Positions 1 through 39,122 of a DNA stretch of 39,122 bases are shown piece after piece. The position numbers and the translations under genes are program-made. This DNA is from a virus (taxonomy: Duplodnaviria; Heunggongvirae; Uroviricota; Caudoviricetes): the IMG/VR virus record IMGVR_UViG_2869924733_000008. The stretch is one strand, 5' to 3'. Position 1 is the stretch's first letter, and the number at the start of each line of letters is the position of its first letter. Under the pieces are notes generated by a model. It was not told where the DNA came from and did no database searches. It saw only the letters and a list, made by a program, of their open reading frames with translations.

Positions 1-164
1 CACAACATCCGAGGACAGCATCGTCCGCCAGCCTACAGAAGTCCGGAAAGCCATGGAAGGTCGTTGGGAGGAGGTACGAATTCTATCATGCAAAAAATAC
101 GTAAAATCGATAACGCCTAGAAATCATTCAATACTCGCACTATCGAAAGTTTACCAGCCAACCG

Positions 165-193
165 CGGCACGTTCCTGCATACGACGTGCCGCA
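165..193 (+). terminator. Candidate stem-loop (9-bp stem GCGGCACGT/ACGTGCCGC, 11-nt loop) just beyond the stop of the minus-strand chaperone gene
   Basis: Perfect inverted repeat read directly from the sequence. There is no U-run on the minus strand and only a weak T-rich tail on the plus strand, so terminator function is uncertain. Confidence 0.2.
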
Positions 194-200
194 GCTTCTG

Positions 201-764
201 TTATTCCACGATAAAATTCCTAACCGAATTCAAATCCTTCAGACTATTCAGCTCTTCCTTCAGCTCCCGCTGACGGCGATAAATCTCGTCATTGCGCTCA
301 ACCTGTGCCTGAGCCATTGCTGCCGCCAGTTCTTCCAGTTCCGGCATCGACAGTTTCACCTGCTGATTATCGGCATCACCCCACGTCATCACGTCCCGTA
401 CAATGTCGGATTTCGCAGCCATTACCACCGGATAAAGGCGGCCCAGTGAGTTGGGGCCAGCATTCCAGATACGACCGTTCCATTCAAACGTGAACGGCTT
501 CGCCTCCTGTTCTGTGCGCCATGCTTCAATTCCCTGACGTCTGGCCTCTCTGGCCGCTTCCAGCATTTCTGGTGTCACAGTGAATGGGGCTATCTCACCC
601 CATTTGCCGCTTTGCAGTTCCTGCCAGATTTGCTGACCCGTCGAAGCGACATCATCAGCGGTGGCTGTGTAGGGGACTGCCTGGTCCCTGTCGTCAAAAA
701 AAACGTCACAGTCTACTGCGCCACTTTCGGTATAACGGGGATTAATGATTTTTTTAATTTCCAC
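201..764 (-). CDS. Tail fibre assembly/chaperone-like protein (second fibre-chaperone cassette)
   Basis: ORF directly downstream of the fibre gene at 775-2043. Start is probably GTG at 764, preceded by GAGGA; the ATG at 818 would overlap the fibre gene by 44 nt. The C-terminal acidic/coiled region resembles enterobacterial prophage fibre chaperones (recall only). Confidence 0.45.
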   Translation of the reverse strand: MEIKKIINPRYTESGAVDCDVFFDDRDQAVPYTATADDVASTGQQIWQELQSGKWGEIAPFTVTPEMLEAAREARRQGIEAWRTEQEAKPFTFEWNGRIWNAGPNSLGRLYPVVMAAKSDIVRDVMTWGDADNQQVKLSMPELEELAAAMAQAQVERNDEIYRRQRELKEELNSLKDLNSVRNFIVE

Positions 765-774
765 GGTGCATTCC

Positions 775-35346: not shown

Positions 35347-35423
35347 CGCTTCAATGGGAAATTGTTGTCGCCATTGTTCGATTAACGCGTATTTTTCAGC
35401 GACTCCTGTGCAAAATACGCTGT

Positions 35424-36644
35424 TGTAGATTCAATTGGTCAACGCAACAGTTATGTGAAAACATGGGGTTGCGGAGGTTTTTTGAATGAGACGAACATTT
35501 ACAGCAGAGGAAAAAGCCTCTGTTTTTGAACTATGGAAGAACGGAACAGGCTTCAGTGAAATAGCGAATATCCTGGGTTCAAAACCCGGAACGATCTTCA
35601 CTATGTTAAGGGATACTGGCGGCATAAAACCCCATGAGCGTAAGCGGGCTGTAGCTCACCTGACACTGTCTGAGCGCGAGGAGATACGAGCTGGTTTGTC
35701 AGCCAAAATGAGCATTCGTGCGATAGCTACTGCGCTGAATCGCAGTCCTTCGACGATCTCACGTGAAGTTCAGCGTAATCGGGGCAGACGCTATTACAAA
35801 GCTGTTGATGCTAATAACCGAGCCAACAGAATGGCGAAAAGGCCAAAACCGTGCTTACTGGATCAAAATTTACCATTGCGAAAGCTTGTTCTGGAAAAGC
35901 TGGAGATGAAATGGTCTCCAGAGCAAATATCAGGATGGTTAAGGCGAACAAAACCACGTCAAAAAACGCTGCGAATATCACCTGAGACAATTTATAAAAC
36001 GCTGTACTTTCGTAGCCGTGAAGCGCTACACCACCTGAATATACAGCATCTGCGACGGTCGCATAGCCTTCGCCATGGCAGGCGTCATACCCGCAAAGGC
36101 GAAAGAGGTACGATTAACATAGTGAACGGAACACCAATTCACGAACGTTCCCGAAATATCGATAACAGACGCTCTCTGGGGCATTGGGAGGGCGATTTAG
36201 TCTCAGGTACAAAAAACTCTCATATAGCCACACTTGTAGACCGAAAATCACGTTATACGATCATCCTTAGACTCAGGGGCAAAGATTCTGTCTCAGTAAA
36301 TCAGGCTCTTACCGACAAATTCCTGAGTTTACCGTCAGAACTCAGAAAATCACTGACATGGGACAGAGGAATGGAACTGGCCAGACATCTAGAATTTACT
36401 GTCAGCACCGGCGTTAAAGTTTACTTCTGCGATCCTCAGAGTCCTTGGCAGCGGGGAACAAATGAGAACACAAATGGGCTAATTCGGCAGTACTTTCCTA
36501 AAAAGACATGTCTTGCCCAATATACTCAACATGAACTAGATCTGGTTGCTGCTCAGCTAAACAACAGACCGAGAAAGACACTGAAGTTCAAAACACCGAA
36601 AGAGATAATTGAAAGGGGTGTTGCATTGACAGATTGAATCTACA
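35424..36644 (+). mobile_element. IS30 (1221 bp) inside IS600 copy 3, opposite orientation to its host element
   Basis: IS30 terminal repeats; 2-bp duplication at 35422-23 and 36645-46. Confidence 0.9.
35486..36637 (+). CDS. insI: IS30 transposase (383 aa)
   Basis: Full-length, identical protein to the other intact copies. Confidence 0.95.
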   Translation: MRRTFTAEEKASVFELWKNGTGFSEIANILGSKPGTIFTMLRDTGGIKPHERKRAVAHLTLSEREEIRAGLSAKMSIRAIATALNRSPSTISREVQRNRGRRYYKAVDANNRANRMAKRPKPCLLDQNLPLRKLVLEKLEMKWSPEQISGWLRRTKPRQKTLRISPETIYKTLYFRSREALHHLNIQHLRRSHSLRHGRRHTRKGERGTINIVNGTPIHERSRNIDNRRSLGHWEGDLVSGTKNSHIATLVDRKSRYTIILRLRGKDSVSVNQALTDKFLSLPSELRKSLTWDRGMELARHLEFTVSTGVKVYFCDPQSPWQRGTNENTNGLIRQYFPKKTCLAQYTQHELDLVAAQLNNRPRKTLKFKTPKEIIERGVALTD

Positions 36645-37169
36645 GTTGCTTTTTTTAATATATCTCGCTCAAGGCGAGCTTCATTTAACGCCTTACGCAG
36701 TTGCAGAATTTCAGATTCCAGTTCAGCCACCGTGCGGGAACCAGGAGTACCGAGCCCTTTTCTGGCGGCGGTAACCCATTGTCCTAAAGTGCCTTCAGGA
36801 AGGGATAATCGGGAAGCGCCTTCACTGATCGAAAATTGATTTTCAAGAACCGTTCTGACAGCTTCGGCTTTGAACTCTTTAGAGTAACGTTGGGTTTTTC
36901 TGCTCATTATTAGCTCCTTCTGATGCCATTCTATTTCAGGAAGGAGTGTCCGTTAAACTCAGGCTACCTCAGCCACCGTGTATTTCTGGTCAACAACCAG
37001 TTGAGCGGATTCGCGTTTAAACTCTGCGCTAAAATTTCTTTTTTTCATTGGAGCACCTGTGTTGTTCTGAGGTGAGCATATCACCTCTGTTCAGGTGGCC
37101 AAATTCAGTGTGCCACTTCATATCTTAAACTACCGGAATGAACTGCTGCATGGAGAAACGCTTTACCTA

Positions 37170-38322
37170 AATAGCTGCGCGGAATAGTAGATCACTTTGA
37201 GGGAACTTAGCCCGGATTGTGCGATCTGATCAATCGCCAAATCAAAACAAATCACCAACCGGACTGAGCAATGCCGATCATAGCACCAATTTCCCGTGAC
37301 GAACGACGCCTGATGCAGAAAGCCATCCATAAAACACACGATAAAAATTATGCCCGCAGACTGACTGCCATGCTGATGCTGCACCGGGGCGACCGTGTCA
37401 GCGACGTTGCCAGAACGCTCTGCTGCGCCCGTTCCTCTGTTGGACGCTGGATTAACTGGTTCACGCAGTCGGGTGTTGAGGGACTGAAATCATTACCTGC
37501 CGGGCGTGCCCGTCGCTGGCCGTTTGAGCATATCTGCACACTGTTACGTGAGCTGGTAAAACATTCTCCCGGCGACTTTGTCTACCAGCGTTCACGCTGG
37601 AGTACAGAACTGCTGGCAATAAAAATCAATGAGATAACCGGTTGCCAGTTAAATGCCGGAACCGTTCGCCGCTGGTTGCCGTCTGCGGGGATTGTGTGGC
37701 GAAGGGCTGCGCCAACTCTGCGTATCCGTGACCCGCATAAAGATGAAAAGATGGCAGCAATCCATAAAGCACTGGACGAATGCAGCGCAGAGCATCCGGT
37801 CTTTTATGAAGATGAAGTGGATATCCATCTTCATCCCAAAATCGGTGCGGACTGGCAACTGCGCGGACAGCAAAAACGGGTGGTCACGCCGGGACAGAAT
37901 GAAAAATATTATCTGGCCGGAGCGCTGCACAGCGGGACAGGTAAAGTCAGCTATGTGGGCGGCAACAGCAAAAGTTCGGCGCTGTTCATCAGCCTGCTGA
38001 AGCGGCTTAAAGCGACATACCGTCGGGCGAAAACCATCACGCTGATCGTGGACAACTACATTATCCACAAAAGCCGGGAAACACAGAGCTGGCTGAAGGA
38101 GAACCCGAAGTTCAGGGTCATTTATCAGCCGGTTTACTCGCCATGGGTGAATCATGTTGAACGGCTATGGCAGGCACTTCACGACACAATAACGCGTAAT
38201 CATCAGTGCCGCTCAATGTGGCAACTGTTGAAAAAAGTTCGCCATTTTATGGAAACCGTCAGCCCATTCCCCGGAGGCAAACATGGACTGGCAAAAGTGT
38301 AGCGGTATTAAGCGCAGCTATT
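37170..38322 (+). mobile_element. IS630 (1153 bp) inserted in the integrase gene
   Basis: Same terminal repeats as the other copy; TA duplication (37168-69 and 38323-24) within ..ACCTAGAT.. (CTAG target). Confidence 0.85.
37271..38302 (+). CDS. IS630 transposase (343 aa)
   Basis: Identical to 29219-30250 except one residue (H/Y). Confidence 0.85.
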   Translation: MPIIAPISRDERRLMQKAIHKTHDKNYARRLTAMLMLHRGDRVSDVARTLCCARSSVGRWINWFTQSGVEGLKSLPAGRARRWPFEHICTLLRELVKHSPGDFVYQRSRWSTELLAIKINEITGCQLNAGTVRRWLPSAGIVWRRAAPTLRIRDPHKDEKMAAIHKALDECSAEHPVFYEDEVDIHLHPKIGADWQLRGQQKRVVTPGQNEKYYLAGALHSGTGKVSYVGGNSKSSALFISLLKRLKATYRRAKTITLIVDNYIIHKSRETQSWLKENPKFRVIYQPVYSPWVNHVERLWQALHDTITRNHQCRSMWQLLKKVRHFMETVSPFPGGKHGLAKV

Positions 38323-39122
38323 TAGATAATCCAAGATCCAACAAAAAAGGAAGAACCGTGCGCACAGTTGATAACTATATCGCCCTGCTCTGTTCGTTGT
38401 TACGTTTTGCGTATCAGTCGGGATTTATATCAACCAAACCATTTGAAGGAGTAAAAAAATTACAGCGAAACAGAATAAAGCCTGACCCGTTATCTAAAAC
38501 AGAATTCAATGCATTAATGGAAAGTGAAAAAGGACAGAGCCAAAACTTGTGGAAATTTGCCGTTTACTCCGGGCTTCGTCACGGGGAACTGGCAGCTCTG
38601 GCGTGGGAGGATGTGGATTTCGAGAAGGGAATTGTGAATGTCAGAAGAAACCTGACGATACTTGATATGTTCGGTCCCCCAAAAACAAATGCCGGGATCC
38701 GGACGGTAACATTACTGCAGCCGGCTCTTGAAGCACTGAAGGAGCAATACAAACTGACCGGGCATCATCGCAAAAGCGAAATCACTTTTTATCATCGGGA
38801 GTACGGCAGAACTGAAAAGCAAAAACTGCATTTTGTTTTCATGCCCAGGGTGTGTAACGAAAAACAGAAACCTTATTACTCGGTAAGCAGTTTGGGTGCA
38901 AGATGGAATGCAGCAGTAAAACGTGCTGGTATTCGCCGCCGTAATCCGTACCATACGCGACATACTTTTGCCTGCTGGCTGTTGACGGCAGGAGCGAACC
39001 CGGCATTTATAGCCAGCCAGATGGGGCATGAAACTGCGCAAATGGTGTATGAAATTTACGGTATGTGGATTGATGACATGAACGACGAACAGATAGCCAT
39101 GTTGAATGCGCGGTTATCGTAG

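Follow-up and report, generated by a model that had tools for sequence, protein, structure and literature searches.

The stretch of DNA analysed here (IMG/VR record IMGVR_UViG_2869924733_000008, 39,122 bp, referred to as the window) is recorded as the sequence of a tailed phage (Caudoviricetes). It carries tail-fibre, baseplate and head/neck/sheath genes on the minus strand, and a ydaU-ydaV-ydaW-type replication block and the remains of the integrase gene intR on the plus strand, all separated or interrupted by insertion sequences (IS) (Table 1). The window is almost certainly what is left of a mosaic lambdoid prophage, now dead, that had integrated at the Rac site (ttcA) in the chromosome of a Shigella dysenteriae strain. 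With the same high confidence, we attribute the state of the locus to ordinary Shigella genome decay, with no hidden cargo system in the window.

Location of the prophage and its surviving genes

By exact-protein matching, the window was placed at ~3,542,765-3,581,886 of the 5,036,586-bp chromosome CP027027.1 (GCA_002943855.1). A preliminary description of the window, made from the sequence alone, had likened its IS repertoire and density to Shigella-type genome decay; this is literally correct, as the proteins found only in CP027027.1 are labeled Shigella dysenteriae by NCBI. In comparison with Escherichia coli VL46, position 1 is the base directly after the stop codon of sitD; at its other end, position 39,122, the window closes with the stop codon of the truncated intR. 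The start of ttcA lies 52 bp past this stop, so that intR is directly beside ttcA, and the gene order beyond intR (ttcA, dbpA, zntB, dgcM) is that of the Rac prophage site. Similarly, a replication module of the ydaU/ydaV/ydaW type is present, consisting of a DUF1376 gene (split by IS2), a DnaC-like ydaV, and a DUF977 fragment.

A 43-bp copy of the 5' end of ttcA (93% identity) was found ~3.8 kb to the left of the window, in the interval from sitA to uspF (positions 15844-15886 of L002; L numbers denote our compared sequences). A direct repeat of the attachment core, with one copy at each end of the element, was recognized from this single repeat pair, and not by comparison with the published Rac att core. 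The element reaches ~3.8 kb left of the window and takes in an intact sitABCD operon (L002 12044-15493), whose products (304, 275, 285, and 285 aa respectively) have the same lengths as in VL46. The sitABCD genes are prophage cargo, located within the att repeats yet outside the window, between the tail-fibre genes and the ttcA repeat; they are the only cargo known for this prophage and the likely reason that the locus is still useful to the cell. Because the window spans the entire sitD-ttcA interval, the missing phage genes described below are not just beyond its edges. A literature search (sitABCD, prophage, and ttcA in Shigella) found no paper on this exact locus.

Structural genes were assigned by tblastn, Pfam, and PHROGs names, with the intact syntenic prophage of E. 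coli VL46 (NZ_CM177010.1, 2276319-2320743) as the best structural reference. The prophage of E. coli O121 strain 201805972 was rejected as a reference, being another prophage, independently IS-ridden, at another locus next to ipaH. Besides the genes listed in Table 1, the head/neck/sheath block also holds a neck terminator, four small structural genes, a cement protein, and a Mu-F-like head morphogenesis protein. Seventeen phage open reading frames (ORFs) are full length and 98-100% identical to those of VL46, and no module is complete. The window thus joins an E217-like head/tail module to lambdoid/Rac early genes. Pfam names in the structural modules (E217 gp24-type cement, gp27, gp28 collar, gp31 sheath N-domain, and gp41 hub) point to relatedness with Pseudomonas phage E217-type myoviruses.

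Table 1. Phage genes and insertion sequences in the window, in order of position. TSD, target-site duplication; VL46 positions refer to our sequences L001 and L003.
Feature	Position	Strand	Details
Tail-fibre module	1-3853	-	95-96% DNA identity to VL46 L001 15001-18686
DUF4376 protein	201-818	-	
Tail fibre N-domain protein	775-2043	-	
Tail fibre assembly protein	2067-2612	-	
Second tail-fibre gene, 3' part	2615-3853	-	frameshifted in poly-C at ~3849
ISEc20 (IS110 family)	3854-5302	+	1449 bp; intact 398-aa transposase at 4081-5277
Baseplate module	5303-9409	-	99.5% identity to VL46 L001 18684-22794; begins with tail-fibre 5' end
DUF2612/wedge	5453-6058	-	
Baseplate J	6060-7297	-	split by 4-bp deletion at 6890
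Sheath initiator	7294-7650	-	
Spike	7663-8340	-	
Hub	8321-9190	-	
Plug gene		-	5' end truncated at 9409
ISSfl3 (IS66 family) fragment	9410-10347	-	inverted repeat GTAAGCGCCCCG and C-terminal 296 aa of TnpC
IS600a	10348-13752	+	1264 bp without insert; flanks CAG/TTG, no TSD
IS30a	10675-12813	+	inside IS600a, TSD AC; split by ISSfl1-like element
ISSfl1/ISSfl7-like (IS5 family)	11790-12705	-	916 bp in IS30a, TSD TA; overlapping ORFs of 149 and 171 aa
Head/neck/sheath block	13753-23754	-	99.6% identity to VL46 L001 26831-36822; collinear over window 13751-23752
Sheath (DUF3383)	in 13753-23754	-	C-terminal 54 aa lost; 1-bp deletion at 14513
Major capsid protein	17326-18354	-	
Portal	20925-22475	-	
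TerL	end of 13753-23754 block	-	N-terminal 109 aa lost
IS600b	23755-27577	-	flanks GAG/GGT, no TSD; in place of TerL 5' end and all downstream
IS2a	24193-25523	+	1331 bp, ORFs intact; inside IS600b, 5-bp TSD GTAGC
IS30b	26030-27250	-	1221 bp, intact 383-aa transposase; inside IS600b, TSD GT
ydaU (DUF1376), upstream region and 5' part	27578-27941	+	Pfam DUF1376 1.3e-24; full-length relatives 382 aa
IS2b	27942-30427	-	simple insertion in ydaU, TSD GTCAG; holds IS630a near left end
IS630a	29199-30351	-	1153 bp, intact 343-aa transposase; at CTAG in IS2b, TA duplication
ydaU 3' part	30537-31289	+	within 30428-32158
ydaV (DnaC-like loader)	31296-32042	+	intact; full-length NCBIfam PRK12377, 506.9 bits
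ydaW (DUF977), first 34 codons	end of 30428-32158	+	
IS911 (IS911/ISEc52 group)	32159-37120	-	1249 bp without inserts; flanks GAT/TAT, no TSD
IS30c	33075-34295	-	intact; in IS911, 6 nt past A6G slippery site, TSD GT
IS600c	34485-36971	-	simple insertion in IS911, 3-bp TSD GCC
IS30d	35424-36644	+	intact; inside IS600c, TSD GT
intR piece	37121-37169	+	49 bp, codons from ~130; 100% identity to VL46 intR (L003 14897-14945)
IS630b	37170-38322	+	intact; simple insertion in intR at CTAG, TA duplication
intR 3' part	38323-39122	+	runs to stop; 100% identity to intR of VL46, VL40, and others; Pfam Phage_integrase

Like the VL46 prophage, the element is flanked by sitABCD and ttcA, and the two are 99.5-99.6% identical over the baseplate and sheath-to-TerL blocks and 100% identical over the 3' part of int. 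Unlike the window, the VL46 prophage keeps the tape measure, tube, small terminase (TerS), lysis genes, tRNAs, Q, immunity, recombination, xis, and a full int, contains a single IS2, and has a replication module of a different type. In comparison with Rac of E. coli K-12, the element likewise has intR next to ttcA, dbpA, and zntB (the integrase is 99-100% identical to intR-annotated genes), replication genes of the ydaU-ydaV-ydaW type, and a defective status. It differs from K-12 Rac in carrying an E217-like myovirus head and tail instead of the Rac remnant genes, in having sitABCD at its far end, and in consisting of ~47% IS.

Insertion sequences and their nesting

The IS map was built from self-comparison, junction sequences, and terminal-repeat searches, and families and names were assigned from NCBIfam, Pfam, and protein cluster names. 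The summed IS intervals (3854-5302, 9410-13752, 23755-27577, 27942-30427, 32159-37120, and 37170-38322) amount to 18,216 of the 39,122 bp, or 46.6% of the window, which agrees with the earlier estimate of about 47%. Fifteen IS copies or fragments from at least eight elements had also been proposed; exactly 15 copies or fragments of exactly eight kinds were mapped, namely IS30 (four), IS600 (three), IS2 and IS630 (two each), ISEc20, a fragment of ISSfl3, an ISSfl1/ISSfl7-like element, and IS911.

The same description had counted four levels of nesting. The nesting is three IS deep, and this depth is proven twice by target-site duplications (TSDs): IS911 holds IS600c (TSD GCC), which in turn holds IS30d (TSD GT), and IS600a holds IS30a (TSD AC), which holds the ISSfl1-like element (TSD TA). 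A fourth level is reached only by counting the prophage itself, or by assuming that IS600a landed in ISSfl3, where a terminus of IS600a abuts the interior of ISSfl3 without a TSD.

After in silico removal of the inserts, the elements have lengths of 1264 bp (IS600), 1221 bp (IS30), 1331 bp (IS2), 1153 bp (IS630), 1249 bp (IS911), 916 bp (ISSfl1-like), and 1449 bp (ISEc20). Canonical elements, as known from ISfinder, are 1331 bp with a 5-bp TSD for IS2, 1153 bp with a TA duplication in CTAG for IS630, and about 1250 bp with a 3-bp TSD for IS911. Both IS2 copies and both IS630 copies have these lengths and duplications (GTAGC and GTCAG for IS2; TA at CTAG for IS630). IS911 has the length and both inverted repeats (at 32159 and 37120), but its flanks (GAT/TAT) do not form a TSD. 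All three IS600 copies are 1264 bp long and 99.7-99.8% identical to PGAP-annotated IS600, in keeping with an element defined by terminal TGAGGT... inverted repeats, orfA/orfB with an A-rich slippery site, and a 3-bp TSD (present at copy c). IS30, an element with 26-bp inverted repeats, is represented by three copies of exactly 1221 bp, each with its 383-aa ORF intact, and by one split copy; each of the four is flanked by a 2-bp TSD. Taken together, IS600 and IS2 show 99.7-100% identity to their PGAP-annotated counterparts in E. coli; the reconstructed IS600a is 99.8% identical to IS600 in L006 and L007, and IS2a is 100% identical to IS2 in L001, L003, and L006.

ISEc20 was recognized by NCBIfam IS110 (239 bits) and by Pfam DEDD_Tnp_IS110 and Transposase_20, and its exact protein is named “IS110-like element ISEc20 family transposase.” It sits in a C11 tract of the tail-fibre gene (window 3843-3853 and 5303-5308). 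In the draft contig AAMJ02000004.1, an empty site (L013 4195-4215) joins 3853 directly to 5303, so that this DEDD-type element is a precise 1449-bp insertion, in keeping with the IS110 family, whose members lack terminal inverted repeats and insert precisely with no long TSD. The ISSfl3 fragment matches NCBIfam IS66 (313.7 bits) only at model positions 125-386, and its cluster members are named ISSfl3; the remainder of the element was cut away by IS600a. The ISSfl1-like element was assigned by NCBIfam IS5_3, Pfam DUF4096, and the cluster names ISSfl1 ORF1, IS1650 orfA, and ISSfl7. IS911 was assigned by NCBIfam IS3 and the cluster name IS911 orfB. Short IS600-like matches around IS30c were considered as a further IS600 fragment and ruled out, as they mark a homologous site in IS911 that lies between IS911 inverted repeats.

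IS600a stands in place of ~4 kb of tail genes (VL46 L001 22795-26830), and IS600a and IS600b lack a TSD because both are at deletion junctions. IS911 bridges the truncated genes ydaW' and int', and hence marks the junction of a deletion or rearrangement. The 10-kb head/neck/sheath block 13753-23754 lies between two IS600::IS30 units (window 10348-27577) that are inverted relative to each other and turn the same IS600 end towards the block. Homologous recombination between these units could flip the block, whose present orientation is the ancestral one.

The IS load may be compared with that of whole Shigella chromosomes. Reference chromosomes carry 229-348 IS insertions, with IS1, IS2, IS4, IS600, and IS911 expanded in all species; S. 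dysenteriae Sd197 has the highest density, 9.26 per 100 kb (Hawkey et al., 2020, PMC7373316). In Shigella, pseudogenization is driven by IS, whose insertions inactivate genes, with deletions following (PMC7373316). The window shares IS2, IS600, and IS911 with this general expansion, and ISEc20, IS630, and ISSfl3/ISSfl4-type elements are on the species-specific lists. It differs in lacking IS1 and IS4, and in its density: 15 IS in 39 kb correspond to ~38 per 100 kb, about four times the highest chromosome average. In place of IS1 and IS4, IS30 (four copies) and IS630 (two copies) are prominent among the 15 IS. An IS-riddled, decayed Shigella prophage is a phenomenon already known in kind, and the locus is a local, extreme example of IS load in DNA no longer under selection.

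Gene loss, rearrangement, and decay of the locus

In comparison with VL46, ~4 kb is missing between blocks 5303-9409 and 13753-23754, from the N-terminus of the plug protein through the C-terminus of the sheath. Lost with it are a baseplate protein, a 673-aa lytic tail/tape-measure protein, a 60-aa protein, a tail assembly chaperone, and a 148-aa structural protein. The last is presumably the tube, judging from its position after the sheath; its PHROGs name is only “virion structural protein.” Right of 23754, the prophage has lost the N-terminus of TerL (109 aa) together with TerS, the lysis genes, the tRNAs, the Q region, and most early genes, and also its immunity and recombination genes and xis. 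The losses of tube, tape measure, small terminase, lysis, and immunity genes noted previously are thus borne out against VL46, the tube by position.

Four genes are frameshifted relative to VL46, in line with the multiple frameshifts reported before: a tail fibre, baseplate J, the sheath, and the head maturation protease (DUF2213). In the tail-fibre gene, T-C11 at ~3849 of the window replaces TA-C8 of VL46. Baseplate J has lost one CTGA unit from a (CTGA)n run at 6890 (6886-6893), a 4-bp deletion, and the protease contains an 11-bp tandem duplication, CATCGCCACCA, at 19048 (19037-19058); both are classic slippage products.

Repeat-rich regions and indels are classic points of assembly failure, and the exact locus is represented by a single complete assembly, so one may ask whether the dense nesting and the frameshifts are artefacts of collapsed or mis-joined repeats and of long-read indels. 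We consider this extremely improbable. Mis-joins would not yield IS of canonical length with the expected TSDs once their inserts are removed, and three of the four frameshifts are outside homopolymers (the 4-bp deletion, the 11-bp duplication, and the 1-bp deletion in CTGCTGC of the sheath gene). Further, the lesions are shared by independent short-read drafts (GCA_049894585.1, ERR6005879, ERR6006354, and GCA_000168075.1), of which contigs L005, L009, L010, L011, L013, L014, and L015 are 99.5-100% identical to the window across all four frameshifts and stop exactly at the mapped IS boundaries. Over 13753-23754, three independent contigs (L009, L010, and L011) agree with the window at 99.99-100% identity. 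AAMJ02000004.1 (L013) contains the tail-fibre, baseplate J, and ISSfl3 lesions, and has an empty ISEc20 site with an uninterrupted C11 tract that is already out of frame relative to VL46. The frameshift is therefore older than ISEc20, which is lineage-specific and, we infer from its empty site, the most recent event identified.

With the lesions real, the claim that the prophage cannot be functional holds, on account of several independent lethal lesions: the tape measure, tube, and chaperone are gone, the sheath is broken, TerL is truncated, TerS, lysis, Q, immunity, and xis are gone, and int, which lacks its first 129 codons, is also split by IS630. Relative to a functional temperate phage with all modules complete, repressor/cro and holin/endolysin are absent as well. 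The remnant could in principle have been domesticated as a tailocin or contractile injection particle, or as a gene-transfer-agent-like head producer, with IS only in its dispensable parts. The 17 full-length ORFs (among them portal, capsid, cement, neck, spike, hub, and three genes of the tail-fibre module) agree with such a use, but their high identity to VL46 is equally expected from recent decay. The lethal lesions of the tail module comprise a sheath with both a frameshift and a truncation and the deletion of the tape measure, the chaperone, the gene in the tube position, and one baseplate gene; frameshifts also affect baseplate J and one tail fibre. A head producer would face a frameshifted protease and a truncated TerL, and the Q antiterminator, late promoter region, and lysis genes have all disappeared. 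We therefore give domestication hardly any credence and regard the remnant as dead.

To find possible cargo, we searched 63 ORFs of at least 80 aa from both strands of the non-IS segments with PADLOC and Pfam. With these and NCBIfam, no defence or toxin system was detected in non-IS ORFs of this size, which belong to phage structural, replication, and integrase families only; as to shorter ORFs, the DNA outside the IS aligns collinearly with genes of the reference phages. Five weak PADLOC matches (DrmD, AbiO, Avs2, Nhi, and TRIP13; best 31.7 bits) all fall on the P-loop of YdaV and were dismissed. Rfam (at gathering thresholds) and an ARAGORN tRNA scan found nothing in the window. The window is thus not a defence or toxin cargo island. 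Its preliminary description had likewise seen no intact defence, toxin, or other accessory system in the non-IS ORFs, and neither Pfam nor the defence profiles revealed a system that had been missed.

The ydaU-ydaW' block (27578-32158) lies on the plus strand, parallel to int. E. coli VL40 and FDAARGOS_944 have the same ydaU/ydaV/DUF977 sequence (98.5% identity), there ~10 kb from intR and antiparallel to it, and the replication genes of VL46 run in the same direction as its structural genes. Therefore, the block is inverted here relative to both int and the structural genes. Its ends abut the termini of IS600b and IS911 with no matching duplications. Attempts to pair the 3-bp flanks of the IS600a, IS600b, and IS911 ends, and so to rebuild the deletions and the inversion, failed, as no flanks match.

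Shigella chromosomes are heavily rearranged through IS, and the block might instead have been imported from a second lambdoid prophage by IS recombination, which would make the window a chimera of two remnants. Its wrong orientation, its contact with TSD-less IS termini at both ends, and the different replication module (an HTH protein and a DnaB-type helicase) of VL46, whose prophage matches the structural genes and int best, would all fit an import. In VL40 and FDAARGOS_944, however, the block sequence lies ~10 kb from a ttcA-linked intR that is 99-100% identical to that of the window. The replication module is thus native to ttcA prophages, and lambdoid mosaicism accounts for the difference in VL46. 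We consider import unlikely, although considerably less so than either artefact or domestication; the conclusion of a dead, IS-riddled prophage is the same whether the block was inverted or imported.

We propose that the ancestral prophage was a mosaic of an E217-like contractile-tail/head module, a Rac-type ydaU/ydaV/ydaW module, and IntR. After loss of function, the locus became selectively neutral and took up IS from the expanding Shigella IS pool. Each IS entered by its usual rule: a 5-bp duplication for IS2, 3 bp for IS600, 2 bp at a near-palindromic hot spot for IS30, TA in CTAG for IS630, and none for ISEc20. IS-associated deletions and at least one inversion then took out ~25 kb of phage DNA, and slippage-type indels put four more genes out of frame. 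The order of these events is suggested by the nesting only. The locus probably persists through linkage to the intact sitABCD iron/manganese transporter, and as its deletion would bring no benefit.

Nothing that we found contradicts a dead prophage, although some points limit this interpretation. The reference prophages are themselves mosaics (VL46 was used for the structural genes and int, VL40 for replication), so the ancestral early gene content is given only approximately, and the ydaU-ydaW' block could derive from another prophage by IS-mediated exchange. The IS ends at TSD-less junctions cannot be paired, which puts the history of deletions and inversion beyond reconstruction. We infer that retention of the locus has to do with sitABCD, and the notion of an “IS sink” draws on the published density of another S. 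dysenteriae strain and on 20 kb of flanking DNA with one IS.

The locus has little meaning beyond annotation and opens no new question. It does provide a clean, resolved example of decay, in which an IS pile-up, IS-associated deletions, an inversion, and slippage frameshifts occur next to the intact, virulence-associated sitABCD. The map can be used for IS-aware annotation and, because ISEc20 is absent from AAMJ02000004.1, for dating decay within S. dysenteriae lineages.

In the right flank, ~7-10 kb from the window (L004 17264-20840), an IS630 copy lies between an 88-aa ORF downstream of abgR and an abgT-type transporter gene. The abgA and abgB genes, both full length at that spot in VL46, appear to be truncated or deleted in this strain.

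IS30 insertions in IS600 and IS911

A small curiosity of the window is an IS30 hot spot in the frameshift windows of IS3-family elements. In all three IS600 copies, IS30 is inserted at one dinucleotide, directly past TTAAAAAAAGCA, and IS911 carries IS30 at the homologous place, past TTAAAAAAGGCT. IS30 has thus hit the spot at least four times in the window, in both orientations. The sites are 4-6 nt after an A6-7G slippery site (window 10670-10680, 12808-12818, 26025-26035, 27246-27256, 33070-33080, 34291-34300, 35419-35429, and 36640-36650). In IS3-family elements, A-runs of this kind are the slippery sites for the -1 frameshift, as established for IS911; by homology, the A-run of IS600 is probably such a site as well.

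Relative to IS600, IS30 has the same orientation in copies a and b and is reversed in copy c (IS30d), and there were therefore at least two independent insertions in IS600. Descent of all three IS600::IS30 units from a single composite was accordingly ruled out for at least one of them, as IS30d is reversed at the same site. Published work on IS30 describes a dual target specificity for near-palindromic hot spots with a 2-bp stagger (Szabó, Olasz et al.; PMC9333248), and its insertions in the window, with their 2-bp duplications, fit this behavior. We found no paper that places the IS600/IS911 hot spot directly after the programmed-frameshift slippery site, a placement that is our reading of the sequence.

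One might speculate that IS30, through this conserved hot spot, acts as a systematic inactivator of OrfAB production in IS3-family elements. We regard this as improbable. Were the site more than a coincidence of sequence, this would amount to a form of IS-on-IS antagonism with a possible influence on which elements expand in Shigella, and the IS600::IS30 composites might still be mobilized in trans.

Such units are not confined to the window. With 140-bp probes, IS600-IS30 junctions were found in 1284 (one orientation) and 626 (the other) of 5426 E. coli genomes, K-12 included. Near fecE in K-12 (L016 1953-4625), IS30 is flanked by a 327-bp IS600 end and an IS911/ISEc52 piece, and this cluster looks like a recombinant between IS600::IS30 and IS911::IS30 units.

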